Source of the DNA: an uncultured Alphaproteobacteria bacterium
GTDB lineage: Bacteria; Pseudomonadota; Alphaproteobacteria; CAZZKF01
Assembly: GCA_964654995.1 (NCBI GenBank)
Contig: CAZZKF010000005.1
Span: 1,616 to 65,615 of the forward strand
Length of the DNA: 64,000 nucleotides
Direction of reading: 5' to 3'
A program made the translations under genes and the position numbers. Shown here in pieces: positions 6,445-30,940 of the stretch. The notes below the pieces were generated by a model. The model made no database searches. It saw nothing but the letters and a program-made list of their open reading frames with translations, and was not told where the DNA came from. Numbering within the stretch: the first letter of the stretch is position 1; every line of letters begins with the position of its first letter.

Positions 6445-6460
6445 GGGATCAGCCCCGCTC

Positions 6461-7219
6461 TCAGACCCTGAAGGTGTATTGCTTGCCGGGCTCACGCTCG
6501 CAATCGGGAGGAAAGCCCTTGCGCTTGTCGGCGTAATAGCGCTCGCGGTGATCCCCGGCCGAGGTGCGGTTGTAGGTGATATAGAGAATGCGGCGCGACC
6601 GTTCGGTGCGGTTGGGCCCGGAGCCGTGCGGCGCATAGGAGTCGAAAAACGCCACATCCCCGGGTTTCGTGGGAAACGGCACGAAGTCCATGCCGGCGGT
6701 CTCGGCCTCGCTCAGGGGCTTCCATTCCTCGCCGATCAGGCCGCGGTCGTGAAAGCCGGCGGCGAGCTCCAGACAGCCGTTCTCCACCGTCGATTCATCG
6801 ATGCTGACCATCGCCGTGATGAAATAGTCGGCATACGCGTTCCAGCCCGCCTGCTGATCCTGATGCAGCTCGAAGCCGCCGCCGCCCGGCAGCTTGAAAT
6901 TGATCTTGTCCTTGTAGAGAACCGCCGGCTCGCCGAGCAGTTCCGCCACCGCGCCCTTGAGCCGGGGCTCGTCGAACAGGGCCTGGAAGCCGGCATGATA
7001 GGGATAGATGTTTTCGGCCCGCTGCAGCACCCGCACGCCGGGCTCAACGCGGCTGTCCTCGTAATACATCATGTGGCGGCCCGGCACTTCCGGCCAGGCG
7101 ACGATTTCATCGCACCAGGCGGCGATCCCGGCGATCTCGTCAGGCGCGAACAGGCCGCGCAGGATGACAAAACCATTGCGCTTGAAGTCAGCAATCTGCT
7201 GGGCGGTGAGGATGGCCAT
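6461..7219 (-). CDS. phytanoyl-CoA dioxygenase (PhyH) family Fe(II)/2-oxoglutarate-dependent oxygenase
   Basis: This is the C-terminal 252 codons of the artefactual 864-aa ORF 6461..9055. The real start is the ATG at 7219 (MAILTAQQIADFKRNGFVILRGLF...), a typical PhyH N-terminus. An HxD...H facial triad is present (FELHQDQ ... YAPHGSGPN). Confidence 0.8.
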   Translation of the reverse strand: MAILTAQQIADFKRNGFVILRGLFAPDEIAGIAAWCDEIVAWPEVPGRHMMYYEDSRVEPGVRVLQRAENIYPYHAGFQALFDEPRLKGAVAELLGEPAVLYKDKINFKLPGGGGFELHQDQQAGWNAYADYFITAMVSIDESTVENGCLELAAGFHDRGLIGEEWKPLSEAETAGMDFVPFPTKPGDVAFFDSYAPHGSGPNRTERSRRILYITYNRTSAGDHRERYYADKRKGFPPDCEREPGKQYTFRV

Positions 7220-7435
7220 GGCTATTTCCCCATACAACACGACGCCCCGAGCGGGGCCCGAACCCGCCCCGATTCTTAGCCCCGGCCCCGGTTCAACACC
7301 AAACAATTTTGCGTGTCGGCGGCGGGCTGCGCAGCGAGCGACGTTGAGGGCCCCCGCCCAATCCTCTATCCTGTCCAGACAAGACGGCACATCGTCGTTT
7401 CGCCGCCCGCACAACCGAACAGGGGGCACGGCTAG

Positions 7436-9109
7436 ATGACCGGCAAACATCGCCTGGAGCCCAAATCTGCAAGCCCGTGGAGCGACGCGGCGCCGACGAA
7501 GGCGGCGCGCTTTCGGGCCGAGCTCGAGTCGGCCGAGCTGTCGTTCCTGATGGAGGCCCACGACGGCCTGTCGGCCAAGGTCGTCGAGGAGGCCGGCTTT
7601 TGCGGCATCTGGGCCTCGGGCCTGGCGATCTCGGCGGCCATGGGCCTGCGCGACAACAACGAGGCCTCGTGGTCGCAGGTGCTCGAGGTGCTGGAATACA
7701 TGTCGGATGCCACGCGCATTCCGATCCTGCTCGACGGCGATACCGGCTACGGCAATTTCAACAATTTCCGGCATCTGGTGAAAAAGCTCGGCCAGCGCGA
7801 CATCGCCGCGGTGTGCATCGAGGACAAGCTGTTCCCCAAGACCAACTCGTTCATCGGCGAGCAGCAGCCGCTGGCCGACATCGACGAGTTCTGCGGCAAG
7901 ATCAAGGCCGGCAAGGACAGCCAGCTCGACGACGACTTCTCGATCATCGCCCGCGTCGAAGCCCTGATCGCCGGCTGGGGGCTGGATGAGGCCCTGCGGC
8001 GTGCCGAGGCCTATGCAGAGGCCGGGGCCGACGGCATCCTCATCCATTCCAAGCGCACCAGCGCCCGCGAGGTGCTGACCTTTGCCGCCGAATGGGCCGG
8101 GCGCAAGCCGCTGGTGATCGTGCCGACCATGTATTACGCGACGCCGACCGAGCGCTTCCGCGAGGCGGATATTTCCATGGTCATCTGGGCCAACCACAAT
8201 CTGCGCGCGGCCTTGAAGGCGATGCGCGAGGTCAGCCGGCGCATCTTCGAGGAGCAGAGCCTGGTCGGCATTGAAGGCCAGATCGCCAGCGTCCGCGACA
8301 TCTTCGAGATCACCGGCAACGACGAGCTGGCCGAGGCTGAGCGCCGCTATCTGGCCAAGGCCGAGCCGAGCGCGCGGGCCATCATTCTCGCCGCCTCGCG
8401 CGGCAGCGCGCTCGCCAAACTGACCGAGGATCGCCCCAAGTGCATGCTCGAGGTCGGCGGCCAGCCGATCCTGCGGCGCCTGGTCAGCACCTTGAATGAC
8501 GCCGGCATCCGCGACATCACCGTGGTCCGCGGCTATCGCAAGGAGGCGGTGGATCTGCCGGCGATTCGGACGGTCGATAACGATTCTTACGCCGAGACCG
8601 GCGAGGTCGCCTCGCTGGCCTGCGCTGCCGCGGCGCTCGAAGGCGATTGCATCGTCTCGTTCGGCGACATTCTGGTGCAGCGCTACATCGTCGGCGAACT
8701 GTTCGAGGCGCAAGGCGATATCGTCGTCGTCGTCGATGCCCTGTGGCGCCAGCGCAGCGATGTTGCCAGCCACGACAAGCGCGATCTGGCGCGCTGCAGC
8801 CGGCCGCGGCCGACCGACTGGCTGGATGACGAGCCGGTCTATCTGGAGGCGCTGGACACCGCCATCGACCCGGCCTGGACCCATGGCCGCTGGATCGGGC
8901 TGGTGAAACTGAGCGCCGCCGGCTGCCGGCTGGTGCGCGACGAGATCAAGGCGATGGGCGAGGACGGCGTGCTCGAGACCGCGTCGATGGCCGATCTGTT
9001 CAACCGGCTGATCGCCAAGGGCGTGCGCCCGGTGGTCCATTATGTCGCCGGCCACTGGCTCGACGTGAACGACGCCTTCGACCTTGCCCAGGCCCGCGAC
9101 TTCGTGTGA
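7436..9109 (+). CDS. pepM: phosphoenolpyruvate phosphomutase fused to a C-terminal nucleotidyltransferase domain (PepM::NTase)
   Basis: 557 aa. The N-terminal ~295 aa form an ICL/PEP-mutase fold ([25 protein letters not shown] motif characteristic of PepM). The C-terminal ~250 aa are sugar-nucleotidyltransferase-like ([30 protein letters not shown]). Confidence 0.85.
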
Positions 9110-10258
9110 GTGCCGGCGATGATCGCCGCTGCCGATTTTCTCACGCCGGCCCGGGCCCGCGGCTTCGATTTTTTCACCGGCGTGCCGTGCTCCTTCCTCA
9201 CGCCTTTGATCGATGCGGTGATCAGTGACGCGCAGACCCGCTACGTCGGCGCCACCAGCGAAGGCGAAGCGGTGGCAATCGCCGCCGGCGCCTGGCTCAC
9301 TGGCCGGCGCACGGTGATGATGTGCCAGAACTCAGGCCTGGGCAATGCCGTCAATCCCTTGACCTCGCTCAACCACCCGTTTCGCATCCCCACCCTGCTG
9401 ATCGTCACCTGGCGCGGCCAGCCGGGCCTGGGTGATGAGCCCCAGCATGAGGTGATGGGGGGAATCACCGGCGATCTGCTGAGCGTCATCGGCATCGCCC
9501 ACCGGCCGTTCCCGAAAGATGCCGGCGCCGTCGAGCCGGCCCTCGATGCGGCCCTCGCCGCGATGGACGCCACCTCGCTTCCCTTCGCCTTCATCATGGA
9601 GAAGGGCACGGTGCGTTCGGCCTCGCTCGACCAGGCGCCGGTTGAGCGGCCGGCGCCCGGCCGGCGCGTCGACATGTGTTGCCGGCGGGCGCGGGTGCGG
9701 CGCGCCGCCGTGCTCGAGCGGTTTCTGGCGGAGATTCCTGAGACGGCGGCGGTGATTGCCACCACGGGAAAATGCGGGCGCGAGCTGTTTGCGCTCGCCG
9801 ATCGGCCCCAGCACCTCTATCAGGTCGGCTCGATGGGCGGCGCCAGCGCCATGGGCCTCGGCGTCGCCATGAACGTGACGCGGCCGGTGATCGTCCTCGA
9901 CGGCGACGGGGCGGCGCTGATGAAGCTCGGCAATATGGCGACCATCGGGGCCAACGCGCCGGAAAACTATGTCCATATCCTGCTCGATAACGGCGTGCAC
10001 GATTCGACCGGCGGCCAGGCGACGGTCTCACCCGTCATCGACTTTGCCGCCATCGCGCTCGCCTGCGGCTACCGCCAGGCTTTCCTGTGCGACGATATCG
10101 CCGGCTTCGCCAAGGCCCTGGCCGGGGCGCTGGCTGAACCCGGCCCGGCTCTCGTTCACATGGCCATCGCGCCGGGCTCGCTCAAGAATCTGCCGCGCCC
10201 CAACATCCCGCCCGACCAGGTTGCACGGCGCTTTCGCCATTTCCTGACAACCGTCTAG
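9110..10258 (+). CDS. ppd: phosphonopyruvate decarboxylase (TPP-dependent)
   Basis: 382 aa immediately after pepM. A GTG at 9110 abuts the pepM stop, and there is an alternative ATG at 9119. TPP-binding motif GDGAALMKLGNMATIGANAPENYVHILLDNGVHDSTGGQ. Its size and position are typical of Ppd/AepY. Confidence 0.85.
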   Translation: MPAMIAAADFLTPARARGFDFFTGVPCSFLTPLIDAVISDAQTRYVGATSEGEAVAIAAGAWLTGRRTVMMCQNSGLGNAVNPLTSLNHPFRIPTLLIVTWRGQPGLGDEPQHEVMGGITGDLLSVIGIAHRPFPKDAGAVEPALDAALAAMDATSLPFAFIMEKGTVRSASLDQAPVERPAPGRRVDMCCRRARVRRAAVLERFLAEIPETAAVIATTGKCGRELFALADRPQHLYQVGSMGGASAMGLGVAMNVTRPVIVLDGDGAALMKLGNMATIGANAPENYVHILLDNGVHDSTGGQATVSPVIDFAAIALACGYRQAFLCDDIAGFAKALAGALAEPGPALVHMAIAPGSLKNLPRPNIPPDQVARRFRHFLTTV

Positions 10259-13197: not shown

Positions 13198-13617
13198 ATG
13201 TCGGGACTGGCTGGCGAAATCGAGGCGCGCGACGCCTGGAAAATACTTGAGCAGGACGATGGCGCGGTTCTGATCGACGTGCGCACCGATGCCGAATGGA
13301 CCTATGTCGGCGTGCCCGATCTGAGCCCCCTGGGCAAGACGCCGGTGCGCCTCTCCTGGCAGCTGTTTCCGGAGATGGCGGTCGATCCCGGGTTTTGCGA
13401 CAAGCTGGAAAGCCTGGGGCTGCCGCGCGATGCGCCATTGCTGTTCATCTGCCGCTCCGGCGCCCGTTCGCGGGCCGCCGCCGAGGCGATGGCGGCCCGC
13501 GGGTATACCCGGTGCTACAACGTCGTCGACGGCTTCGAGGGGGATCCGGACGCGCACAATCATCGGGGCACGATCAATGGCTGGAAGGTCGCCGGCCTGC
13601 CCTGGGTGCAAGAGTAG
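13198..13617 (+). CDS. rhodanese-domain sulfurtransferase (single domain)
   Basis: 139 aa. Rhodanese fold with the active-site Cys loop FICRSGARS. Confidence 0.8.
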   Translation: MSGLAGEIEARDAWKILEQDDGAVLIDVRTDAEWTYVGVPDLSPLGKTPVRLSWQLFPEMAVDPGFCDKLESLGLPRDAPLLFICRSGARSRAAAEAMAARGYTRCYNVVDGFEGDPDAHNHRGTINGWKVAGLPWVQE

Positions 13618-13661
13618 ATATCGGCCAGAAACGACGGACAGGACAGGGAAACGGGGACGCA

Positions 13662-15062
13662 ATGACGGGGCGAGACGTTGATATGGACAGGGACTGGACA
13701 CAGGTTCGTGCGCGGCTCAAATCGGAATTCGGCGACGCCACCTACAACAGCTGGATCAAGCCGCTGAGCCTGGTCGACGTGCGCGACGGCCGCGCCCTGA
13801 TCGCCGCCCCGACCCGGTTCATGCGCGACTGGGTGCTGTCCCACTACGGCGACCGCATTCGCGATCTTCTGGCTCTGGAAAACACCGACATTGCCGATAT
13901 CGAGATCGAGGTCCGCGCCCGCCTCGGCGGGCGTGATTCGTCACCCGGCGAAGCCGCCAAAACCGGCACCGACACCGGCTCCGGCAAGCGCTTGGCGCCT
14001 CAGCGCGCGGTCCCGGAACGCCGCCGCGACGATGAGATCGGCGCACCGCTCAATCCGCGCTTCACCTTTGCCAGCTTCGTCGTCGGCAAGTCCAACGAGC
14101 TGGCCCATGCCGCCGCCCGCCGGGTCGCCGAAAATCCCCATGTCCAGTTCAATCCGCTGTTTCTCTATGGCGGCGTCGGGCTTGGCAAGACCCATCTGAT
14201 GCACGCCGTCGCCTGGCACATCCGGGCCCGCGATCCGGCCCGCAAGGTGATGTATCTGTCAGCCGAAAAGTTCATGTATCAGTTCATCCGGGCGCTGCGC
14301 TTCAAGGACACCATGACCTTCAAGCAGCAGTTCCGCTCGGCCGACGTGCTGATGATCGACGATGTCCAGTTCATCGCCCACAAGGAATCGACCCAGGAAG
14401 AGTTTTTTCATACCTTCAACGCGCTGATCGACAACCACCGCCAGGTGATCATTTCCGCCGACCGCTCGCCGTCCGACCTCGAAGGCATCGACGAGCGCAT
14501 CCGCTCGCGCCTGGGGTGGGGGCTGGTCGCCGACATTCATCCCACCGATTTCGAGCTGCGCCTCGGCATCCTGCAGTCCAAGGCCGAGCAGGTCGGCGAT
14601 GTCGACGTGCCGGAAGAGGTGCTGGAGTTCCTGGCCCGGCGGATCACCTCAAATGTGCGCGAGCTCGAAGGCGGGCTCAACCGGGTGGTCGCCTACGCCA
14701 GCCTGGTCGGCCGGCCGGTGACCCTGGAGATGGCCCAGGAGGTGCTCCAGGACCTGCTGCGCGCCAACGACCGCCGGGTCAGCGTCGAGGACATTCAGCG
14801 CAAGGTCGCCGATTATTTCAATCTCCGCCTGTCCGATCTGCTGTCGGTACGGCGCGCCCGCTCGGTGGCCCGGCCGCGGCAGGTGGCGATGTATCTGGCC
14901 AAGCAGATCACCTCGCGCTCGCTGCCCGAGATCGGCCGCAAGTTCGGCGGGCGCGACCACACCACGGTGATGCACGCGGTGCGCCGCATCGAGGAGCTGC
15001 GCGAGCTTGATGCCGAGCTCGACGAGGCGATTTCCCACATCCGCCGCACCCTCGAATCCTGA
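13662..15062 (+). CDS. dnaA: chromosomal replication initiator protein DnaA
   Basis: The ORF runs from 13296 but overlaps the rhodanese gene. I chose the ATG at 13662 ([12 protein letters not shown]...), preceded by AGGGAA. An alternative ATG is at 13683. Walker [14 protein letters not shown]+ sensor motifs and the C-terminal DNA-binding helix ([32 protein letters not shown]) are present. Confidence 0.95.
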
Positions 15063-15289
15063 TCGATCGGGGGCGATTTTCGGCGCCCCCGAGCCGGCCG
15101 CCGCCAGGCTTGGCAGGACCCCGTAAACAGGCTAGAAAAACGTGCGGATTCAAGCGGTTTCTGTTATGGTCGGCGTGACCTTCCGGGGGGCCGGGCGCAA
15201 CCCTTGAATGGGGGCTGGTTTTTCTTCATGGCCCGGGTCCCGTCGTGGGGTACGGTTGCGGTATCTTTTTGTCGAGAAGCAGTCAGGCG

Positions 15290-16404
15290 ATGAAACTCAC
15301 CATTGAACGCGGAACCCTGTTGAAGGCGCTGGGTCATGTGCAAAGCATCGTCGAGCGGCGCAACACGATCCCGATTCTCTCCAACGTCCAGATCGAGGCC
15401 GAAGACGGGCGGCTGAGCCTCACCGCTACCGATCTCGACCTGGCGATCGTTGAATCGGTGCCAGCCGACATTCAGGAGCCGGGAACGCTGACGACGCCGG
15501 CGCACACGCTTTACGACATCGTCCGCAAGCTCCCCGACGGGGCCGAGATCGAGCTGCGCTATGACGGCACGGAGGGCCGGCTGGCGCTCAACTGCGGGCG
15601 CTCGCACTTCAAGCTCGCCTGCCTGCCGCGCGAGGATTTCCCGGTGATGGATGCCGGCGATCTGCCGCATCGCTTCGCCATTTCGGCGGCCGACCTCAAG
15701 CGGTTGATCGACAAGACCCGGTTTGCCATCTCCACCGAAGAGACCCGCTATTACCTGAACGGTATCTATTTTCATGTGACTGATGCGGACGGCATCGCCA
15801 GCCTGCGGGCCGTCGCCACCGACGGCCACCGCCTCGCCCGGGTCGAGATGCCGGCCCCCGAAGGCGCCGCCGGCATGCCCGGGGTGATCGTCCCGCGCAA
15901 GGCCGTCGCCGAGCTGCGCAAGCTGATCGACGAATTCGAAGGCGACATCAAGGTGTCGCTGTCGGATACCAAGATCCGCTTCGATTTCGACGACGCGGTG
16001 CTGACCTCGAAGCTGATCGACGGCACCTTTCCCGATTACGCCCGGGTCATTCCGACGACCAACGACAAGGCGCTCGAGGTCGATGCCAAGCAGCTGGAAA
16101 CCGTTGTCGACCGGGTGTCCACCATCGCCACCGAAAAATCGCGGGCGATCAAGCTCAATCTCGATCAGGACCAGCTGGTGCTCTCCGCCACCAGCTCGGA
16201 AACCGGGACCGGAACCGAGGAGCTGGCGGTCTCCTATGCGCAGGACCCCCTGGAGATCGGCTTCAATTCCCGCTATCTCCTCGACATACTTGCCCATGTC
16301 GACGGCGAGCATGCGAAGATTCTGCTGGCCGACCCGACATCGCCGACCCTGGTGCGCGACGAGGCGGATGACGGCGCGCTTTACGTCCTGATGCCGATGC
16401 GGGT

Positions 16405-16408
<4 letters not shown>
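15290..16408 (+). CDS. dnaN: DNA polymerase III beta sliding clamp
   Basis: 372 aa starting at MKLTIERGTLLKAL, a typical beta-clamp N-terminus. The ORF-track start at 15245 adds an implausible 15-aa extension. Confidence 0.95.
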
Positions 16409-20066
<3,658 letters not shown>

Positions 20067-20102
20067 GCGCCGCGGCGCCCGGACTCGCGACAGGCGGCGG
20101 CG

Positions 20103-22013
20103 ATGACCGCGAACAGCGCCGGTAAAGGCGGCTCCGGAAAGTCCCGGCGCCGGGCGCGGCGCATGCCGAAGCGGCTGCGCCGGACTGCACGGTGGGCGGC
20201 GCTCACCGCGCTGTGGGGCACCATTGCCATCGTCGCCATCCTCGGCGTCTTCGCCCTCGATCTGCCCGACATCGGCGATCTCAACGACACGGCACGCCGC
20301 CCCGGGATTACGCTGCTGGCGGCGGATGAGACCCGCATTGCCAGTTTCGGCGACCTGTACGGCGAATGGCTGACGGTGGACGAACTGCCGCCGGTCCTGA
20401 TCGACGCGGTGCTGGCCACCGAGGACCGGCGTTTCTACGACCACTTCGGCATCGATCTGCATGGCCTGGCCCGCGCCCTGTGGGCCAACATCCGGGCCGG
20501 ACATGTGGTCCAGGGCGGCAGCACGATCACCCAGCAACTGGCCAAGAACCTGTTCCTGACGCCTGAGCGCACGATAAAGCGCAAGATTCAGGAGGTGCTC
20601 CTCGCCCTGTGGATGGAGCAGCTGTTCACCAAGGATCAGATCCTCACCCTCTATCTCAACCGCGTCTATCTGGGCGCCGGCAATTACGGAGTGGACGCTG
20701 CGGCACGCCATTATTTCGGCCATTCGGCGCGCAGCCTGAGCGTGGCCGAAGCGGCGATGCTCGCCGGCCTGCTCAAGGCGCCGTCGCGCTATGCCCCGAC
20801 CAACGATGTCGAGCGGGCGCGGGCGCGCGCCGCCCAGGTCATTCGCAATCTGGTCGATGCCGGCCGCCTCGATCAGGCGGGCGCCGATGCCGCGCTGGCC
20901 GCCATGCCCCGGCTCAAGCCCCCGAAGGCACCGTCGAGCGCCCGCTATTTTGCCGACTGGGTGGCGACGCAGCTCCCCGGCCTGATCGGCAACACCGGCC
21001 GCGATCTGGTGATTCGTACCACCCTGGCACCGCGTCTCCAGCGCCTCGCCGAACGCGCGGTGGCTGCCAATCTGGCCCGCGACGGCGACCGCCTCAATGC
21101 CCATCAGGCGGCGCTGGTGGCCCTGGCACCCGGCGGTGCGGTGCGCGCCATGGTCGGCGGCCGGTCCTATGCGACAAGCCAGTTCAACCGCGCCACCCAG
21201 GCGCTGCGCCAGCCGGGCTCGGCGTTCAAGCTGTTCGTCTATCTCGCCGCCATGGAGGCCGGGCTGACACCGGAAAGCCGGATGCGGGACTCACCGGTGA
21301 TCCTCGAGGGCTGGCGGCCGCAGAACTATTCGAAGCGCTATCGCGGCGAGGTCACCCTGCGCCAGGCACTCATTCATTCGATCAACACGGTGGCGGTCAA
21401 ATTGTCCGAGCGGGTCAACCGCCGGCGCGTCATCGCCGCCGCCCGGCGGCTTGGTATCACCAGCAAGATGACGGCGCGCCCGAGCCTGGCGCTCGGCACC
21501 TCGGAGGTGCGCCTGATCGAGCTGACCGCCGCCTACGGCACGCTGGCGCACAACGGGCGCCCGGTCCGGCCCTATGGCATCGTCGAGATCCGCGATGGCG
21601 CCGGCACCGTGCTTTACCGCCGGCCCGAGCGCCGTGATGAGCCGGTGATCGATCCGCTGGTTCTGGGCGAGCTCAACGACATGCTGATCGACGTGTTGAA
21701 GACCGGCACCGGCAAGGCCGCCTATCTCGACCGGCCGGCGGCCGGCAAGACCGGCACCAGCCAGGATTTCCGCGACGCCCTTTTCATCGGCTATACGGCC
21801 GATCTGGTGGCCGGCGTATGGGTCGGCAACGACGACGGCACGCCGATGCGCAAGGTGACCGGCGGCGGTCTGCCGGCGCGCATCTGGCGCGATTTCATGG
21901 CGCCCGCAGTCGCCGACATGCCGGTGCGCGACCTGCCCCGCTATCAGCCGGTGCCGGAACAGAAGAAAAAGAAAAAACGCGGCTTTTTCTCGCGCCTGTT
22001 TTCACGCAAGTGA
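20103..22013 (+). CDS. class A penicillin-binding protein (transglycosylase + transpeptidase)
   Basis: 636 aa. Basic N-terminus plus a TM helix. GT51 motifs (EDRRFYDHFGID, GGSTITQQLAKN) and transpeptidase motifs (SAFK, KTGT). Confidence 0.85.
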   Translation: MTANSAGKGGSGKSRRRARRMPKRLRRTARWAALTALWGTIAIVAILGVFALDLPDIGDLNDTARRPGITLLAADETRIASFGDLYGEWLTVDELPPVLIDAVLATEDRRFYDHFGIDLHGLARALWANIRAGHVVQGGSTITQQLAKNLFLTPERTIKRKIQEVLLALWMEQLFTKDQILTLYLNRVYLGAGNYGVDAAARHYFGHSARSLSVAEAAMLAGLLKAPSRYAPTNDVERARARAAQVIRNLVDAGRLDQAGADAALAAMPRLKPPKAPSSARYFADWVATQLPGLIGNTGRDLVIRTTLAPRLQRLAERAVAANLARDGDRLNAHQAALVALAPGGAVRAMVGGRSYATSQFNRATQALRQPGSAFKLFVYLAAMEAGLTPESRMRDSPVILEGWRPQNYSKRYRGEVTLRQALIHSINTVAVKLSERVNRRRVIAAARRLGITSKMTARPSLALGTSEVRLIELTAAYGTLAHNGRPVRPYGIVEIRDGAGTVLYRRPERRDEPVIDPLVLGELNDMLIDVLKTGTGKAAYLDRPAAGKTGTSQDFRDALFIGYTADLVAGVWVGNDDGTPMRKVTGGGLPARIWRDFMAPAVADMPVRDLPRYQPVPEQKKKKKRGFFSRLFSRK

Positions 22014-23849: not shown

Positions 23850-23922
23850 AGCCCGCTGACATTTGCCTTGCCGGCGGCCAAGGCGCCGGTCCCGGGCAGA
23901 CCGTCGCCGGCCAAGGCGGAAC

Positions 23923-25320
23923 ATGATGACCACGGACCAGGACTCCCCCACCGCATCTTCGGGGTCGACCGCGTCGGCCACGACCGAACCGTTGCGGGTG
24001 CGCGAACACGTGCGGCTGCGCACCCTGATCTTCATTCGCTGGATCGCGGTGCTCGGCCAGGCGACGACATTGCTGTTCGTTCATTTCGTTGCCGGCTTCC
24101 ATGTGCCGTTGATGCCGGCGGCGGTGGCGATTGCCGCCTCGGTGGTGCTCAATCTGATTCTCACCGCCGCCTATCCGCCGACCCGGCGCCTGACCGACCG
24201 GCAGGCAACCCTGCATCTCGGATATGATCTGCTGCAGCTCAGCGTGCTCCTGTACCTGACCGGCGGGCTGGCCAATCCGTTCGCCGTGCTGATGCTGGTG
24301 CCGGTCACCATTTCGGCCACGATCCTGAGCGGCCGCAGCACCCTGGAACTGGGCGGGCTGGCGCTGATCTGCGTCACCGGCCTGGCGTTCTTCTACCAGC
24401 CGCTCCCCTGGTCGGACGGAGGTCTGGAGCTGCCACCCATCTATATCTGGGGTGTGTGGTCGGCGCTGGTGCTGGGTACCGCCTTCATGGCCACCTACGC
24501 CTGGCGCGTGGCCTGCGAGGCGCGCCGCCTGTCGGAAGCGCTGGTCGCCAGCCGTCTGGCCCTCGCCAACGAGCAGAAGCTTTCCGCCCTGGGCGGGCTG
24601 GCGGCCGCCGCCGCCCATGAGCTGGGAACCCCGTTGGGCACCATCGCCCTGGTCGCCAAGGAGCTGAGCCGGGCCGTCCCCGACGACAGTCCGCTGAAAC
24701 CCGACATCGCCCTGCTGCGTGCGGAAGCCGGCCGCTGCCGCGATATCCTGGCGCGGCTGCTGCACCGGCCGACCCAGACCGATCCGTTTCCGTTCGATGT
24801 GATGCCGCTCTCCGCGGTCGTCGAAGAGGCAGCCGAACCGCATCGCCATTATGGCATCGACATTGCGTTCATCGCCCACGGCGCGCCGGAGTCCGAGCCG
24901 CGGCTGCGACCGGTTCCCGAATTGGTCCATGGTCTCGGCAATATCATTGAAAACGCCGTCGGCTTTGCCCGAAACCGGGTGGAAATCGACATGACCTGGG
25001 ATGACCGCAGCGTCTCCATCACCGTCGCCGATGATGGCCCCGGGTTCGAGCCGCGCCTGCTCGGCTGGCTTGGTGAGCCTTATCTGAGTTCGCGCAGTGA
25101 CGCGAACTCCGGGGAGACGCGCGACGAGGCCGGCGGCATGGGGCTCGGCATCTTCATCGCCAAGACCCTGTTGGGGCGCACCGGCGCCGGTCTGAGCTTC
25201 GCCAACCGCCCCGGCACAGGCGCCGCGGTGACGGTGAACTGGCCGCGGGTCAGCCTTGCAGAACCGCCGGCAGCGACCGAAAACACGACGGCTTTGGCAC
25301 TGGACGCAATTAAAGGGTAG
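23923..25320 (+). CDS. regB: redox-responsive sensor histidine kinase RegB/PrrB/ActS
   Basis: Six TM helices, the RegB-specific redox-box region and the hallmark GGLANPF loop. H-box AAAAHELGTPLGTI. The ATPase G-boxes are present. I chose the start at the ATG pair at 23923; the ORF track begins at 23863. Confidence 0.9.
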   Translation: MMTTDQDSPTASSGSTASATTEPLRVREHVRLRTLIFIRWIAVLGQATTLLFVHFVAGFHVPLMPAAVAIAASVVLNLILTAAYPPTRRLTDRQATLHLGYDLLQLSVLLYLTGGLANPFAVLMLVPVTISATILSGRSTLELGGLALICVTGLAFFYQPLPWSDGGLELPPIYIWGVWSALVLGTAFMATYAWRVACEARRLSEALVASRLALANEQKLSALGGLAAAAAHELGTPLGTIALVAKELSRAVPDDSPLKPDIALLRAEAGRCRDILARLLHRPTQTDPFPFDVMPLSAVVEEAAEPHRHYGIDIAFIAHGAPESEPRLRPVPELVHGLGNIIENAVGFARNRVEIDMTWDDRSVSITVADDGPGFEPRLLGWLGEPYLSSRSDANSGETRDEAGGMGLGIFIAKTLLGRTGAGLSFANRPGTGAAVTVNWPRVSLAEPPAATENTTALALDAIKG

Positions 25321-25321
25321 A

Positions 25322-25921
25322 ATGACTCTAAGACTCGGCCCTCGGGATATGGCGGAAACAGATGAGAGCAAGATGCGCGCGGATAGCAGCGAGAGCAGGG
25401 TGCGACGGCTGCTGATCGTCGATGACGACGCGGCGTTCCGGAACCGGCTGGCACGGGCGATGGAACAGCGCGGCTACCGGGTCGGCGCGGCCGCCTCGAT
25501 CGACGAGGCCATTGCCCAGGCACGCGCCGAGCCTCCCGATTTTGCGGTCATCGATCTGCGCCTCGAGGACGGCAGCGGCCTTGACATTGTCGCCACCTTG
25601 CGCGACCTGCAGCCCGGCGTGCGCATCGTCATCCTCACCGGCTACGGCAACATCGCGACCGCGGTGGCGGCGGTCAAGGCCGGGGCCGTCGATTATCTCG
25701 CCAAGCCGGCCGATGCCGACGATATCGAGGCGGCGCTGCTGGCCGAGGAAGGCGCCAAGCCGCCGCCGCCGGAAAATCCGATGTCGGCCGACCGGGTGCG
25801 CTGGGAACACATCCAGCGGGTCTACGAGCTGTGCGGCCGCAATGTCTCGGAAACCGCACGCCGGCTGCGCATGCACCGCCGCACCCTGCAACGGATTCTC
25901 GCCAAGCGCTCGCCGCGCTGA
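25322..25921 (+). CDS. regA: response regulator RegA/PrrA/ActR (REC + Fis-type HTH)
   Basis: Receiver domain (LLIVDDDAAFRN...DLRLEDGSGL) and the nearly invariant RegA C-terminal HTH (NVSETARRLRMHRRTLQRILAKR). The start could be 25322 or 25349. The ORF-track start at 25256 overlaps regB. Confidence 0.9.
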   Translation: MTLRLGPRDMAETDESKMRADSSESRVRRLLIVDDDAAFRNRLARAMEQRGYRVGAAASIDEAIAQARAEPPDFAVIDLRLEDGSGLDIVATLRDLQPGVRIVILTGYGNIATAVAAVKAGAVDYLAKPADADDIEAALLAEEGAKPPPPENPMSADRVRWEHIQRVYELCGRNVSETARRLRMHRRTLQRILAKRSPR

Positions 25922-25940
25922 ACCCCGAAAGACGGAATCG

Positions 25941-26702
25941 TCAGCCGCCGCGTGGCGGCCGGACCGGGCGGCGCAACCGCGGCGTCGACGCCGACGCCGG
26001 CAGGCGGTGAAGCCACCAGGCGTTCTCGTTGATCGAATAGATCGGCCGGTAGTGGCGAATGGTGGCGGCATCGACCACCCGCGAGATCTGATTGTCCAGA
26101 ATCAGTGTGCGACCGTTCAGGTAGACCGCCAGCACGGCGTGCGGGACGTTAAGATTGAGGTCCTGGAGAACGACGATGCGGAGCTGGTCGGCATCGAAGC
26201 CCAGGGCGCGGAGCGCCATGTATTTGGCGATCGCGTAATCCTCGCAGTCGCCATCCTTGCGCAGGAATTCGACAGGTGTCGCCCAGTAATCCCGGACCCC
26301 CCAGTTGCGCGGGTCGGTGATATAGGGGCTCAGGTTCATGCGCGCGTGCACGGCTTCGACCTGGGAGCGGGGGTCGCGATTTTTCAGATCGGCAATGAAA
26401 CGGTCCCAGTCGCGCAGGAAACAGCGGGAAAAACGGGTCGGCTGGCAGCTCGAAGCGCGGGCGCGTTCGGCCTCGAAGCGGGCCAGCATGCCGGTCCATT
26501 TACCGAACGCCGCGAGCCGGGTGCTGCGGATCTCGATGCTGCCGAACAGGCCGCTTGCCGCCTTGCCCGCCGCCGGCGTGGCGGCGACGGCGCCGCCGGC
26601 AGATGCCAGCGTGATGAGAAGGCCGAAGGCCGCCAGCCATCGCCACCATGACAGGCGTCGATATCGGTCGGCAGGTCTGTGGCTGCGGCCGGCGAGTCCC
26701 AT
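25941..26702 (-). CDS. periplasmic transglutaminase-like cysteine proteinase (BTLCP/LapG-like, peptidase C93)
   Basis: 253 aa. Signal peptide present. The conserved order Cys (DGDCEDYAIAKY), His (NVPHAVLAV) and Asp (LILDNQ) matches the BTLCP catalytic-triad arrangement. Confidence 0.75.
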   Translation of the reverse strand: MGLAGRSHRPADRYRRLSWWRWLAAFGLLITLASAGGAVAATPAAGKAASGLFGSIEIRSTRLAAFGKWTGMLARFEAERARASSCQPTRFSRCFLRDWDRFIADLKNRDPRSQVEAVHARMNLSPYITDPRNWGVRDYWATPVEFLRKDGDCEDYAIAKYMALRALGFDADQLRIVVLQDLNLNVPHAVLAVYLNGRTLILDNQISRVVDAATIRHYRPIYSINENAWWLHRLPASASTPRLRRPVRPPRGG

Positions 26703-26910
26703 GCGCTGTCCCGTCTGTGGCCGGCCGATTCGAAGGGCCGGAGCGGAAATTGTCGGCCGGTGCCGTTAACAAGCTGTTAAGCGTAAAGTCGTTAGCTCTG
26801 GAAGGACGGGCCGCCCCCGGGTTACAAGAGGAGTGCCGGGACGCGAAATCGGCTGCGCGGAGCGGCCATGCCCGGATGGAGACGGGAACCGCGGTTCCCG
26901 AAGGAAGGAG

Positions 26911-29025
26911 ATGGGCCCAGTGCCGGAACCGGTCAGCCGCGTGTCAAACGCCCGGATCGGCCGCACAGGCCTCGCGATCGGGCTGGGGCTTGCCCTGGCG
27001 GTGATTGTCGGCGTTGTTCTGGTGCTCCGCTTCACCGCCGCCGAGCGCCAGCGTGATCTGCGCGCCTGGCAGATCCGCCTCGGCATCGTCGCCGATTCGC
27101 GCGCGGCGGCCGTCAATGACTGGCTGGCCGACCAGATGGGCGCGATTCGCGAAATCGCCGACAACCCCTCGGTGGCGCTCTATCTGACTGAGCTGGCGCT
27201 GGCCGCCGGCGACCCGGACCAGGTGGCGGAGGCAACGGCCCAGGAAGAGTATCTGCGCACCCTGCTGATCACCGTCGCCAGCCGCGCGCGCTTCGAAGGA
27301 CCGCTGCTCGGCCCCGATGTCGCCGCCAATATCGAGCGCCAGGGCATCGCCGGCCTGATGCTCGTGGACGCCGGCGGCCGGCCGCTGGTGGCGACCCCCC
27401 AAGCGCCGCGTCTCGACGCGCGGCTCGACGCGATGCTGGCGGCAGTGCAGGGGCGCAGTCATGCGATCGCCGGTCCCTGGCTGGGCCCGGGCGACGAGCC
27501 GGTTCTGGCTTTCGTCATGCCCATCGCCCCGGTCCAGGGCACCGAGGGCGAGGATGCCCCGGTCGGCTTCGTGATCGGCGTCAAGCGGCTGGCCGAGGGG
27601 CTTTACGAGGCACTGCGCCAGCCCGGCGAGACCGAGGAGAGTGCCCGCACCTATCTGGTCCGGGCCCGCGGCGCGGTGATCGAGTATCTGTCGCCGCTCG
27701 ATGATGCGGCACCGCTGAAATTTACCATGGCCCGCGATACACGCGATCTGGCGGCCGCCTATGCCCTTGACTCGCCCGGCGGATTCGCGCGGCGGATCGA
27801 TGCTTGGAACCGCCCGGTTCTGGTCACCAGCCGAGCCCTCGACGAGGTGCCCTGGGTGCTGGTCCGCACGGTTTCGCTCAAGGAGGCGCTGGCCGAAAGC
27901 AATGCCCGGCGCAGCGCCTTCCTGGTGGTCGTGCTGCTGGCGATCTTCGGCGCCGCCGCCGGCATTCTTCTGGTCTGGCGCCACGGCACCTCGCTGCGGG
28001 CGGCCGCGGCGGCCGAGCGCTACCGCGAGATGGCCGAGCGCCATGCCCGCCTCGGCCGGTTCCTGCGCATTGTCGCCGATGCCCAGCCGACGGCGATCGC
28101 CACCGTCGACGGTGACGGCGTCTACAGCTTCGCCAACGCCCGCGCCGCCGATGACGCCGGCATCGCCGCCGATGATTTCCCCGGCAAGACCATGGCCAGC
28201 GTCCTCGGCCCGGCGAGGGCGGCGCTGTTCCAGCCGCTCAACAAGGCGGCGCTGGAGACCGGCCAGCCGGTGTTCCGGACCCAGACCGTCGACGAGACCC
28301 GCGGCCAGAAGATCATCCGTTCGGCGCATGTGCCGCTGCCCGACGAAGCCTCCGAGCGCCGCGAGGTCCTGATGGTCATGGAGGATGTCACCGAGCTGGT
28401 GCGCGAGCGCGAGCGCCGCGAAGCCAATCTGCGCCAGCTGGTGACCACGCTGACCGGCATCATCGACCGGCGCGACCCGTTTGCGGCGCGCCATTCGGCC
28501 CGGGTTGCCGAGGTGGCGGAGGCGATCGCCGTCGAGATGGGCCTCTCGGATGTCGAGGTGGAAACCGCCGAGATCGCCGGGGCGCTGATGAACCTCGGCA
28601 AGATCCTGGTGCCGGAAGAGGTGCTGACCGCCGCCCGGACCTTGACGCCGGATCAGCTTCAAAGCGTGCGCGAGGCGATCGCCGCCAGTGCCGATCTGCT
28701 GGAAGGGGTGGAGTTCGACGGCCCGGTGGTTGCCACCATTCGCCAGGTTCAGGCGCGCTGGGACGGCGCCGGCGTGCCCGAGGGGCTCAAGGGCGAAGAC
28801 ATTCTGGTCACCGCCCGGGTAGTCGCCGTGGCCAATGCCTTCGTCGGCATGGTCAGTGCGCGGGCCTACCGTCCGGGGCTCGATATGGACGATGCCATCA
28901 ACCAGTTGCTGGCGGATGTCGGCAAGGCCTTCGACCGAGGCCCGGTTGCGGCGCTGGTCAACATTCTGGATAATCGCGACGGCCGCGCGCGCTGGGCCGA
29001 CTTCGGAACACCGCCCGAAGCCTGA
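26911..29025 (+). CDS. membrane-bound sensor protein: TM, periplasmic sensor domain, TM, PAS, then a degenerate HD-GYP domain
   Basis: I chose the ATG at 26911 because AAGGA lies 5 nt upstream. The ORF-track start is 26833. Two hydrophobic helices (about aa 15-40 and 315-340 of this model) flank a ~270-aa periplasmic region. The cytoplasmic part has a PAS-like segment and an HD-GYP fold that aligns motif-for-motif with RpfG-type domains, but the catalytic residues are replaced (see findings). Confidence 0.8.
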   Translation: MGPVPEPVSRVSNARIGRTGLAIGLGLALAVIVGVVLVLRFTAAERQRDLRAWQIRLGIVADSRAAAVNDWLADQMGAIREIADNPSVALYLTELALAAGDPDQVAEATAQEEYLRTLLITVASRARFEGPLLGPDVAANIERQGIAGLMLVDAGGRPLVATPQAPRLDARLDAMLAAVQGRSHAIAGPWLGPGDEPVLAFVMPIAPVQGTEGEDAPVGFVIGVKRLAEGLYEALRQPGETEESARTYLVRARGAVIEYLSPLDDAAPLKFTMARDTRDLAAAYALDSPGGFARRIDAWNRPVLVTSRALDEVPWVLVRTVSLKEALAESNARRSAFLVVVLLAIFGAAAGILLVWRHGTSLRAAAAAERYREMAERHARLGRFLRIVADAQPTAIATVDGDGVYSFANARAADDAGIAADDFPGKTMASVLGPARAALFQPLNKAALETGQPVFRTQTVDETRGQKIIRSAHVPLPDEASERREVLMVMEDVTELVRERERREANLRQLVTTLTGIIDRRDPFAARHSARVAEVAEAIAVEMGLSDVEVETAEIAGALMNLGKILVPEEVLTAARTLTPDQLQSVREAIAASADLLEGVEFDGPVVATIRQVQARWDGAGVPEGLKGEDILVTARVVAVANAFVGMVSARAYRPGLDMDDAINQLLADVGKAFDRGPVAALVNILDNRDGRARWADFGTPPEA

Positions 29026-29081
29026 GCCCGGTATGAGCCGTCCGTATCGGGCGGCGGCGGTTCAGGCAGGATGGGCGAACC

Positions 29082-29906
29082 ATGCAGGTCATCGACAGGT
29101 TGAAGGCGCTGTTGCCCGGGCGATCGCAGCCCGAGCCGGCGCCCCCGCGTGGCCCGGAGGGTACCCGCATCTATGCGGTCGGCGACATTCACGGGCGCGT
29201 CGATCTTCTGGGCGAGCTGCGCGCGCGAATTGCCGAGGACGCGGCGGCGCATTCGCAGGCCCGCCGCGTGATCGTCTATCTCGGCGACTATGTCGATCGC
29301 GGACCGGCCAGCCGCGAGGTCATCGAAACGCTGGCCGGTGAGCCGTTGCCGGGCTTTCAGGAGGTTCACCTGCTGGGCAATCACGAAGACATGTTCATGC
29401 GGTTTCTCGGCGACGTGCGCATCGGCCCGGTGTGGTTTCTGAACGGCGCCCGGGCGACGCTGGCCAGCTATGGCGTCGATGTTCCGGACGCGGCCGATGA
29501 CGAGACCGCGTTCGCCGACATTCAGGCGCGCATCAATGATCAGTTGCCGGCGCACCACCGCGCCTTCCTGCGCGGGCTTCGACCCTGGCACCTGGAAGGC
29601 GACTATCTGTTCGTGCATGCCGGCCTGCGCCCGGGCCGCCGGATCGAGCGTCAGGACATCGAGGACCTGATCTGGATTCGCGACGACTTTCTGAATTCGG
29701 ACGCCGACTTTGGCGCCGTCGTCGTGCATGGCCATTCGATTCGCGAGGCCCCCGAATTTTGCGCCAACCGCATCGGCATCGACACCGGGGCGTATCGAAC
29801 CGGGGTGCTGACGGCGCTGGCGCTCGAGGGCGAGGCCCGCACCATCCTTCAAACCGGGCAGACCGGGCCGCAGGCCGGCGCGACAGATGAACCGGAGACG
29901 CGATAA
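29082..29906 (+). CDS. PPP-family serine/threonine protein phosphatase (metallophosphoesterase, PrpA/ApaH-like)
   Basis: 274 aa. Metallophosphatase motifs GDIHGR, GDYVDRG, GNHE and a GH motif. Confidence 0.85.
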   Translation: MQVIDRLKALLPGRSQPEPAPPRGPEGTRIYAVGDIHGRVDLLGELRARIAEDAAAHSQARRVIVYLGDYVDRGPASREVIETLAGEPLPGFQEVHLLGNHEDMFMRFLGDVRIGPVWFLNGARATLASYGVDVPDAADDETAFADIQARINDQLPAHHRAFLRGLRPWHLEGDYLFVHAGLRPGRRIERQDIEDLIWIRDDFLNSDADFGAVVVHGHSIREAPEFCANRIGIDTGAYRTGVLTALALEGEARTILQTGQTGPQAGATDEPETR

Positions 29907-30001
29907 ATCGCCGCTGGTCGGCCTTTGTTCCCGTGGCGCAACCGCTCCGGATCTGCTATAATTCATCTTAACGTGGCCGCAACCAAACGGTGACGTATCA
30001 G

Positions 30002-30024
30002 CCCCCGTAATACACTTACGGGGA
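30002..30024. other. perfect 8-bp stem-loop (CCCCGTAA-tacac-TTACGGGG) in the phosphatase-yaaA intergenic region
   Basis: The inverted repeat is seen directly. No U-tract follows it. It may be a transcript-end or regulatory hairpin. Confidence 0.3.
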
Positions 30025-30151
30025 CTTTGGAGACGCCATGCTGCAGGTGGTGATTCTCCGGAGCGAGACACGAAATGGCCGCCGGGGTTTTAATCGATCC
30101 CGGCGGTTGCGTTTGCGGCCCCCGCGCGCTGAGACCTGAGGAAACCGCCCG

Positions 30152-30940
30152 ATGCTTGTGCTGATCTCGCCGGCCAAAAAACTCGATACCCTGGCCCCCG
30201 CACCCGTGCCCGACCATACGGTCCCGGAGCTGATCGCGGAGGCCGGTCAGTTGATCGATATCCTCAAGCGATTGGGACCGGCGGAGTTGCAGCGGCTGAT
30301 GAAGCTGAGCCCGAAGCTCGCCGAAGTGGCGCTGGCCCGTCATCGTCAGTTGACAACACGGCTGGGCCCGGACAACGCCAAGCCGGCGGTCTTCGCGTTC
30401 AAGGGCGACACTTACGTAGGCCTCGATGCCGCCAGCCTGACGCCCGCCGACCTGGGCGTGGCGCAAGGTGGCTTGCGCATTCTCTCAGGCCTTTACGGGC
30501 TCTTGCGCCCGCTCGACCTGATCCAGGCCTACCGTCTGGAGATGGGCGCGCGCCTCGCCAATCCGCGGGGGCCGACGCTTTACGATTTCTGGCGCGAGCC
30601 GGTGACGCAAGCCGTCAATGCGGCGCTTGAGCGGGCCGGCGGCGGGCCGGTGGTCAACCTTGCCTCGGTGGAATATTTTTCGGTGCTGCAACAGGAGGCG
30701 CTGGCCGCGCCGGTGATCACCCCGGTGTTCAAGGAAGGGCGCGACGGCAGCTACCGGGTGCTCGGCCTGTTCGCCAAGCGGGCGCGCGGTATGATGGCCC
30801 GGTTCATCATCCGGAACCGCATTGACCGGGCCGACGATCTGCTGGAATTCGCGGATGCCGGCTACCGGTACAACCCTGCCGCCTCCGAACCCGGGCGGCC
30901 GGTGTTCCTGCGCCAGCAGCCGCGCAAGAGCGCGGCATAG
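30152..30940 (+). CDS. yaaA: peroxide stress protein YaaA (UPF0246/DUF328)
   Basis: 262 aa. N-terminus MLVLISPAKKLD and overall conservation typical of YaaA. Confidence 0.9.
   Translation: MLVLISPAKKLDTLAPAPVPDHTVPELIAEAGQLIDILKRLGPAELQRLMKLSPKLAEVALARHRQLTTRLGPDNAKPAVFAFKGDTYVGLDAASLTPADLGVAQGGLRILSGLYGLLRPLDLIQAYRLEMGARLANPRGPTLYDFWREPVTQAVNAALERAGGGPVVNLASVEYFSVLQQEALAAPVITPVFKEGRDGSYRVLGLFAKRARGMMARFIIRNRIDRADDLLEFADAGYRYNPAASEPGRPVFLRQQPRKSAA

Follow-up and report, generated by a model that had tools for sequence, protein, structure and literature searches.

A putative DvhD-type receptor with a degenerate HD-GYP domain, encoded beside a LapG-like protease in an uncultured alphaproteobacterium

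DvhD of Desulfovibrio (Nitratidesulfovibrio) vulgaris Hildenborough, called a DVU1020-type 'HD domain/sensory box protein', serves the DvhDG system of adhesin control as its receptor for cyclic di-GMP (c-di-GMP) (Karbelkar et al. 2024, PMC10990149; Font et al. 2026, PMC13090378). This inner-membrane protein, whose structures are PDB entries 9rc0, 9rbz and 9rc2, combines a periplasmic double-Cache (dCache) domain with a PAS and an HD-GYP domain, the latter having SQ in place of HD and MN in place of HH (Font et al. 2026, PMC13090378). DvhD was found to bind no metal and to hydrolyse no c-di-GMP with any ion tested, and its affinity for c-di-GMP is about 0.1-0.3 uM (PMC13090378). Each dimer takes up three c-di-GMP molecules, two in 'canonical' sites and one in a 'bridging' site, and the stalk helices, which are the dimerisation element, splay apart when the nucleotide is bound (PMC13090378). 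DvhD takes the functional role of LapD over the LapG-like protease DvhG and places it under c-di-GMP control (PMC13090378, PMC10990149). Here we describe a receptor gene assigned to this type, together with the protease gene next to it, in a stretch of 64,000 nucleotides from an uncultured Alphaproteobacteria bacterium (assembly GCA_964654995.1, contig CAZZKF010000005.1), which we call the window.

We consider it rather probable that the encoded protein is a DvhD/LapD-like inside-out receptor for c-di-GMP, and that it governs the BTLCP protease encoded next to it and thereby the retention of a surface adhesin. The receptor gene and its modules are as follows.

26911-29025, plus strand: DvhD-type receptor gene, 704 amino acids plus stop (start choice and domain scans).
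26968-27030, plus strand: transmembrane helix 1, about residues 20-40 (Kyte-Doolittle windows above 1.8 at residues 16-27 (+19)).
27031-27912, plus strand: periplasmic dCache domain, about residues 41-334 (AlphaFold2 (AF2) model and Foldseek; weak Pfam dCache_1 match).
27913-27978, plus strand: transmembrane helix 2, about residues 335-356 (hydropathy and family alignment).
28078-28404, plus strand: cytoplasmic PAS domain, residues 390-498 (Pfam PAS_4, E 6.3e-15; colinear with the PAS domain of DvhD in 9rc0).
28405-28470, plus strand: helical stalk, the linker from PAS to HD-GYP, residues 499-520 (helix H131-158 in the model).
28453-28938, plus strand: degenerate HD-GYP domain, residues 515-676, a putative c-di-GMP-binding switch (Pfam HD_5, E 2e-32).

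The longest reading frame for the receptor (26833-29025, plus strand) begins with GTG at 26833 and has 730 amino acids. We took 26911 as the start because an AAGGA Shine-Dalgarno sequence (26901-26905) lies 5 nt before the ATG there and because the database protein P0001 has 704 amino acids and is 100% identical to the receptor from this codon; on these grounds the ATG is likely to be the true start, and residue numbers refer to the 704-residue protein. Its modules are thus a transmembrane helix, a periplasmic dCache domain, a second transmembrane helix, a PAS domain, a helical stalk and a degenerate HD-GYP domain, in that order. The two hydrophobic segments (about residues 20-40 and 335-356) flank a region of about 295 residues, and in the family alignment the near-invariant juxtamembrane motif VWRHGTSLRA comes directly after the second helix. 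The Pfam HD_5 match covers residues 541-702 of the 730-residue frame with 112.7 bits against a cut-off of 27.2 bits, a score so high that the HD-GYP assignment is far beyond chance.

When the PDB was searched with the single receptor sequence (phmmer), 9rc0/9rbz came out best with E 2e-36, the next protein being V-cGAP3 with 3.9e-20, and Bd1817 was a far weaker match than DvhD (E 0.0098). A profile built from 66 family sequences matched DvhD with E 1.9e-69, colinearly over PAS and HD-GYP. Over the 201 columns of stalk and HD-GYP, the receptor is 39.8% identical to DvhD, compared with 28.7% to the HD-GYP enzyme PmGH. For the periplasmic domain, no PDB chain was reached by sequence or profile search, and only the fold comparison reached one. 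The AF2 model of this part has a predicted local distance difference test score (pLDDT) of 91.3, and its top Foldseek match in the PDB is 9rc2, the periplasmic domain of DvhD (E 3.6e-10; template modelling (TM) score 0.77, target-normalised, at 17% identity), with dCache chemoreceptor and kinase sensor domains ranked below. For the model of the cytoplasmic part (pLDDT 91.7), Foldseek ranks 1-5 are taken by 9rc0 and then four 9rbz chains (TM scores 0.86-0.88), ahead of PmGH and PA4781. Since dCache, PAS and HD-GYP are all best matched by DvhD, the receptor was assigned to the DvhD type, and it is the presence of dCache and PAS in the same protein, with a LapG-like protease adjacent, that identifies the system. 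The receptor and DvhD also share derived states at the former active site, namely D305 to N, D308 to V/C, H276 to a hydrophobic residue (PmGH numbering), and the motif AVANAF..MV..R.YR. Such common states would argue for a single ancestral loss of catalysis.

At receptor residues 46-71 (27046-27123) lies the periplasmic motif with the highest conservation in the family, ERxRDLQAWQIRLGIVADSRAAAVxxW, in which several Arg and Trp residues are invariant. Placed at the membrane-proximal start of the periplasmic helix, it could serve to relay the signal or to contact the protease; the predicted DvhG contact in DvhD sits on helix alpha1'.

The functional residues of PmGH were mapped on the receptor column by column, using a phmmer pairwise alignment and a MAFFT alignment of 122 sequences. 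The metal ligands of PmGH are E185, H189, H221, D222, H250, H276, H277 and D305 (Bellini et al., PMC4159591), while D183 and K225 are catalytic, D308 is structural, and R314 and K317 bind the substrate (PMC4159591). Replacement of H221, D222, H250, H276 or H277 by alanine essentially abolishes the activity (PMC4159591). The equivalent positions are listed below.

PmGH E185: receptor F524.
PmGH H189: receptor H528, kept (codon 28492-28494, plus strand).
PmGH H221 and D222, the HD positions: receptor M560 and N561 (28588-28593, plus strand).
PmGH H250: receptor A589.
PmGH H276, H277 and E278: receptor V613, Q614 and A615 (28747-28755, plus strand).
PmGH G284, Y285 and P286: receptor G621, V622 and P623 (28771-28779, plus strand).
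Whole degenerate HHExxDGxGYP loop: V613-Q614-A615-R-W-D-G-A-G621-V622-P623 (28747-28779, plus strand).
PmGH D305: receptor N642.
PmGH D308: receptor V645.
PmGH D183, K225, R314 and K317: receptor D522, K564, R651 and R654, all retained.

A genuine HD-GYP enzyme served as the positive control. It comes from L002, the one locus returned by a contig scan with the receptor protein alone, where a canonical, active HD-GYP is found at 29% identity. The same columns give H-HD-K...H...HE...Y...D...D in this protein, and since its canonical residues fall in the expected columns, the mapping is validated. In the receptor, one of the eight PmGH metal ligands is left (H528) and the other seven are replaced, and the GYP motif reads GVP. 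With seven of the eight ligands lost, neither a di- or tri-metal centre nor hydrolysis of c-di-GMP is predicted, and the HD-GYP domain of the receptor is therefore predicted to be catalytically dead.

These results bear on an earlier, sequence-only reading of this DNA, which had proposed an HD-GYP domain with every catalytic signature replaced. The presence of the domain is confirmed by the HD_5 match, and the alignment agrees with that reading in that HHE has become VQA, that GYP has become GVP, and that the first His is the only metal ligand to survive. The wider claim is correct for the metal ligands, but not for D522, K564 and R651/R654, which are retained. The HD dyad had been read as NL. 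This is one residue out of register, as the dyad instead aligns to the M-N of ALMNLGK (M560-N561), although the nucleotides quoted for the motif, 28588-28602, do span MNLGK. A canonical HD...HHE...GYP in another register of the receptor was found by none of three independent alignments (phmmer, MAFFT and tblastn), and such a misregistration is ruled out. The suggestion that the domain is a pseudo-enzyme retained for binding a ligand or a protein gains support from the nearest solved structure, that of DvhD, which is metal-free, non-hydrolysing and c-di-GMP-binding.

The degeneracy is not confined to one sequence. Our family sample consists of the 120 best homologues, which are 44-100% identical to the receptor and all about 700 residues long. 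His is found at the HD position in none of them; M occupies the first of the two HD positions in 100 of the 120, and N the second in 109. The D305 position is N and the D308 position is V in 116 sequences each, the H250 position is S or A in 111, and the position of the GYP Tyr is a gap in 57 and variable in the rest. The degenerate metal-site pattern recurs in 84 independently fetched metagenomic loci. The mean frequency of the top residue is 0.73 for the stalk, the most conserved segment of the protein, followed by 0.68 for HD-GYP, 0.64 for dCache and 0.60 for PAS; judged from this conservation, the HD-GYP domain is under purifying selection. We account for a degeneracy that is family-wide in a conserved domain by a maintained pseudo-enzyme, neither a lesion of one gene nor a decaying gene. 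The contig derives from a JGI metagenome. The named relatives are Alphaproteobacteria, comprising Desertibaculum as well as metagenome-assembled genomes of Hyphomicrobiales and Magnetovibrionaceae.

We then compared the nucleotide pocket with that of DvhD, whose numbering was rebuilt from the printed alignment with the anchor K520-A-P-Y523 and reproduces all residue identities quoted in the paper. Counts refer to the 120 homologues.

DvhD Y523, canonical site: F524, conservative.
DvhD L577, canonical site: L578, kept.
DvhD K582, canonical site: L583, lost; R, L or I in the family.
DvhD Y621, canonical site (the GYP Tyr, a phosphodiester contact): V622, lost; most of the family has a gap or a varying residue there.
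DvhD M646, canonical site: M647, kept; M in 109.
DvhD R650, canonical site: R651, kept; R in 119.
DvhD Y652, canonical site: Y653, kept; aromatic or His in 118.
DvhD E668, canonical site: D669, conservative; D, E or Q in 102.
DvhD K520, bridging site: R521, conservative; R in 119.
DvhD P567, bridging site: P568, kept; P in 111.
DvhD R569, bridging site: E570, lost; E or D in 96.
28849-28872, plus strand: M647...R651-A-Y653-R654, the equivalents of the mutation-validated contacts M646, R650, Y652 and R653 of DvhD.

The last of these residues, R654 for DvhD R653, is R in 119 of the 120 homologues. In DvhD, the changes R650A, Y652A/R653A, P567T and M646A+K520E impair c-di-GMP-dependent stabilisation or dimerisation (Font et al., PMC13090378). 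All of these mutation-validated binding residues are retained in the receptor, with K520 present as R521, and they are near-invariant among the homologues. From this pattern the receptor is likely to bind c-di-GMP, and its bridging site may differ from that of DvhD.

The second gene of the pair lies on the opposite strand.

25941-26702, minus strand: LapG/DvhG-like periplasmic cysteine protease (BTLCP, Peptidase_C93), 253 amino acids (Pfam PF06035, E 5.6e-16).

This gene is divergently transcribed and lies 208 bp upstream of the receptor gene. Its product has matches in two LapG structures, 4fgo (E 1e-25) and 4u65_E (E 1.4e-20). The Cys-His-Asp triad of LapG is intact: GDCEDYAIAKY aligns, and so do the His in HAVLAVY and the Asp in ILDN. 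The D-C-E calcium motif corresponds to D316/C317/E318 of DvhG, which are needed there for calcium binding and activity. Read by eye, the N-terminus appears to be a cleavable signal peptide. The pairing of the two genes is conserved. A metagenome scan for relatives of the receptor gave at least 537, counted among the first 600 candidate stretches, and 80 loci were kept. Of the related loci, 69 include 1 kb or more of sequence upstream; 62 of them have a BTLCP gene there, which is adjacent and divergent in 59. BTLCP is again the divergent neighbour in three long contigs with receptor homologues (L003-L005). Between the BTLCP and receptor genes of L004, an IS66-family transposase gene and a DruA-domain gene (6362-9876) split the pair.

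On the proposed mechanism, the receptor would be a two-pass inner-membrane protein that probably forms a dimer, by analogy with DvhD. At high c-di-GMP, the nucleotide would occupy the HD-GYP pocket and alter the dimer packing of HD-GYP and stalk. By way of PAS and the two membrane-spanning helices, this change would reach the dCache domain, in 'inside-out' signalling, and the dCache domain would then restrain the LapG-like, calcium-dependent cysteine protease encoded next door. At low c-di-GMP, the protease would be free to cut the periplasmic anchor of a giant adhesin secreted by a type I system, and the adhesin would be released from the surface. No such substrate is found in the window.

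Several points weigh against this proposal. Three of the 11 crystallographic contacts of DvhD are lost in the receptor (Y621 to V, K582 to L and R569 to E), and binding may therefore depart from the 3:2 mode, perhaps with another affinity or specificity as well. The periplasmic domain is just 17% identical to that of DvhD, and the interaction mode of DvhD with DvhG is itself so far a model (PMC13090378). No adhesin, type I secretion or TolC-like gene was found in the 64-kb window among open reading frames (ORFs) of at least 200 amino acids, with a Pfam scan of 24 ORFs. Lastly, the receptor-protease pair sits amid core housekeeping genes near dnaA and gyrB.

Some of these features could also be read as marks of a distinct subtype. 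As the GYP Tyr, H250 and the bridging Arg are lost in the alphaproteobacterial clade (more than 500 metagenomic loci), its receptors might have an altered stoichiometry or affinity, or bind another dinucleotide. As the pair is uncoupled from an adjacent adhesin or type I secretion system, and the adhesins of relatives carry a FecR-like N-terminal domain and no recognisable [TAP]AAG, the protease might recognise a substrate or a cleavage motif of a new kind. We regard this as a speculative reading with a small chance of being right.

The rival that survives best, though we think it unlikely, has the receptor act as a scaffold or as an outside-in sensor. A small molecule in the periplasm would bind to the dCache domain, and the dead HD-GYP domain would pass the signal on through protein contacts, with no need of nucleotide, to a partner such as a diguanylate cyclase or a phosphodiesterase; the degenerate RpfG-family proteins HnoD and RpfG work in this way. 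Most dCache domains are indeed ligand sensors, degenerate HD-GYPs that act by protein-protein interaction are known (HnoD, RpfG, ECA3548; Galperin & Chou preprint), and the loss of several DvhD nucleotide contacts in the receptor is in keeping with this view. However, RpfG-type partner binding uses GYP, and within the loop this motif is less conserved here than any other part, with the Tyr deleted in about half of the family, while the nucleotide contacts R651, Y653, R654, M647 and P568 are near-invariant. The conserved partner gene, moreover, encodes a periplasmic protease, which fits inside-out control. The outside-in and inside-out modes are not mutually exclusive.

A more doubtful possibility is that the same machine works with another ligand, such as 3'3'-cyclic GMP-AMP (3'3'-cGAMP) or pGpG, or with c-di-GMP at the canonical site only, in an altered pocket. 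DvhD also binds 3'3'-cGAMP with a dissociation constant of about 0.5 uM (PMC13090378), and the receptor has other residues in place of Y621, K582 and the bridging R569, and Asp in place of E668. Against this, the guanine-clamping L578, Y653 and M647 and an acidic specificity residue (D669; D/E/Q in 102 of 120) are retained, and every characterised Lap-type system uses c-di-GMP. That the receptor is a working phosphodiesterase with an unconventional active site is very improbable, for although D522 and K564 (PmGH D183 and K225) occur throughout the family with few or no exceptions and most members also have H528, seven of eight ligands are now F, M, N, A, V, Q and N, which are poor or non-coordinating, a single alanine at five such positions abolishes PmGH activity (PMC4159591), and DvhD, which is less degenerate in that it keeps H250, is without metal or hydrolysis.

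Returning to the inside-out proposal, the orthologous loci offer candidate adhesins. Using a heuristic for giant RTX proteins (an ORF of at least 1000 amino acids that is D/T/N/G/S/V-rich or has GGxGxD repeats), we found a giant RTX-type ORF in about 21 of the 58 loci longer than 9 kb, mostly convergent with the receptor gene and just downstream of it. On the long orthologous contigs L003-L005, Pfam marks HemolysinCabind, Cadherin and Big_9, with OEP nearby. The LapG consensus [TAP]AAG does not occur in the first 300 residues of seven neighbouring adhesins (regular-expression search), and the retention module and cleavage motif of the adhesins in this clade may be unlike those of LapA and DvhA. 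The adhesins beside receptor orthologues share a conserved FecR-like N-terminal domain of about 120 amino acids, carried by L004 (19649-20017), L005, L026, L027, L049/L050, L058, L066, L003 and L070. Its consensus is ...GDxVxQGD...DGAxGxxLADxTTFSMAExGxMVLDEMVYDPGTQEGS...GVFTFVSGxIAKTDPDAMTLDTPVATIGIRGTQV. A tblastn search of the window with this conserved adhesin domain gave no match. The large plus-strand ORFs at 53.5-61.6 kb had no Pfam matches, the Pfam scan there covering the plus strand; they are probably antisense shadows of minus-strand genes in high-GC sequence.

When compared with DvhD, the receptor has the same order of modules (transmembrane helix, dCache, transmembrane helix, PAS, stalk, degenerate HD-GYP) and an adjacent BTLCP gene, and giant RTX adhesins lie beside many of its orthologues. 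Differences are seen in the former active site and the pocket. HD is MN in the receptor and SQ in DvhD, HH is VQ and MN respectively, H250 is lost in the receptor and kept in DvhD, and the receptor lacks the GYP Tyr and has Leu for K582 and Glu for the bridging R569. DvhG has a membrane anchor and a long linker, whereas the protease in the window appears, from its N-terminus, to have a cleavable signal peptide. Beside the pair in the window there are no adhesin or type I secretion genes, and the host is an uncultured alphaproteobacterium.

The resemblance to LapD of Pseudomonas fluorescens, which acts with LapG and LapA, is one of proposed logic, in that a dead c-di-GMP-turnover domain would serve as the cytoplasmic receptor and exert inside-out control of a protease. 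In the LapD system a BTLCP clips an adhesin of type I secretion, and the protease in the window matches LapG structures. The two receptors are nevertheless non-homologous: a LapD_MoxY_N periplasmic domain, HAMP and degenerate GGDEF-EAL belong to LapD, and Pfam and NCBIfam scans found no LapD_MoxY_N, HAMP, GGDEF or EAL in the receptor. The receptor has the HD_5 fold of the active HD-GYPs (PmGH 4mcw, PA4781 4r8z, V-cGAP3 5z7c and the RpfG family) and keeps their loop scaffold (R-W-D-G-x-G-x-P...I), the lysine of GK and the R/K pair that binds the substrate, but with seven of the eight metal ligands and the GYP Tyr replaced it is predicted to be inactive. Bd1817, HnoD and ECA3548 resemble it in the HD-GYP fold, in altered HD and HHE motifs and in a non-enzymatic regulatory role. 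Their architectures are different (stand-alone, REC-linked or PilZ-linked), their sequences are far less similar to the receptor than that of DvhD, and they have no BTLCP partner.

Alphaproteobacterial DvhDG systems are already listed in Supplementary Data 1 of Font et al. 2026, for Pelagibius, Kiloniella, Fodinicurvata, Sneathiella, Denitrobaculum and Oceanibacterium, and therefore their occurrence at class level has been published; no studied alphaproteobacterial DvhD member was found in the literature searched. As both this kind of system and its presence in the class are published, no new kind of biology is opened here. The variant features of the locus (the GYP Tyr and H250 lost, the bridging Arg replaced by an acidic residue, and a pair with no adhesin near it) are minor. 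Public databases label receptor-type proteins as 'HD domain-containing phosphohydrolase' or 'PAS domain-containing protein'. The former implies c-di-GMP degradation, while the evidence here points to a non-catalytic receptor, and counting such proteins as phosphodiesterases would skew gene censuses of c-di-GMP turnover in Alphaproteobacteria. The DvhDG logic, with a dead HD-GYP in place of LapD's dead EAL, would extend to a large and mostly uncultured alphaproteobacterial clade, whose natural variants of the DvhD pocket (no GYP Tyr, acidic at the bridging Arg) could help to define the essential contacts.

The region between the two genes was read directly.

26703-26910, no strand: divergent intergenic region, 208 bp (sequence read).
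26766-26780, no strand: AT-rich imperfect palindrome TTAACAAGCTGTTAA, within the intergenic region of an otherwise high-GC sequence.

This palindrome may be an operator. Its counterpart TTAACAAGGTGTTAA is found at the same place only in the closest metagenomic relative (L006), and a loose form of the pattern matches just 4 of the 67 intergenic regions of related loci. Among k-mers enriched in these 67 regions, for example, GACGCAAG occurs in 17-19 of them. No sigma-70-like promoter site was found in 25800-30200, where terminator-like matches were at background level.

Around the pair, the window carries dnaA, recF/gyrB, a class A penicillin-binding protein (PBP) gene, SCO1, a PilS-like kinase with its regulator, Metallophos, YaaA, TauE and pnp. 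The neighbourhood of a chromosomal replication origin spans 13296-22013, with dnaA at 13296-15062, gyrB (recF/gyrB) at 17628-20066 and the class A PBP gene at 20103-22013. A gene for a calcineurin-like metallophosphoesterase (Metallophos, E 4.5e-12; 29082-29906, plus strand) begins 57 nt past the receptor stop and may be co-transcribed with the receptor gene; since the orthologous contexts L003-L005 lack it, it is probably not part of the system. On the other side, genes for a PilS-like histidine kinase with six transmembrane helices (23863-25320, plus strand) and a response regulator with a PucR-type helix-turn-helix (25256-25921, plus strand) are convergent with the BTLCP gene and end about 20 nt from its stop codon; they too were considered as members of the system and rejected, since L003-L005 lack them. 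Farther away, a gene for a phosphoenolpyruvate (PEP) phosphomutase fused to a MobA-like nucleotidyltransferase (E 1.3e-60 and 2.4e-13) lies at 7436-9109 on the plus strand, and opposite to it a PhyH-family dioxygenase is encoded in the C-terminal (low-coordinate) end of the ORF at 6461-9055 on the minus strand. Together, the PEP phosphomutase/MobA and PhyH genes suggest a small cluster for phosphonate biosynthesis.

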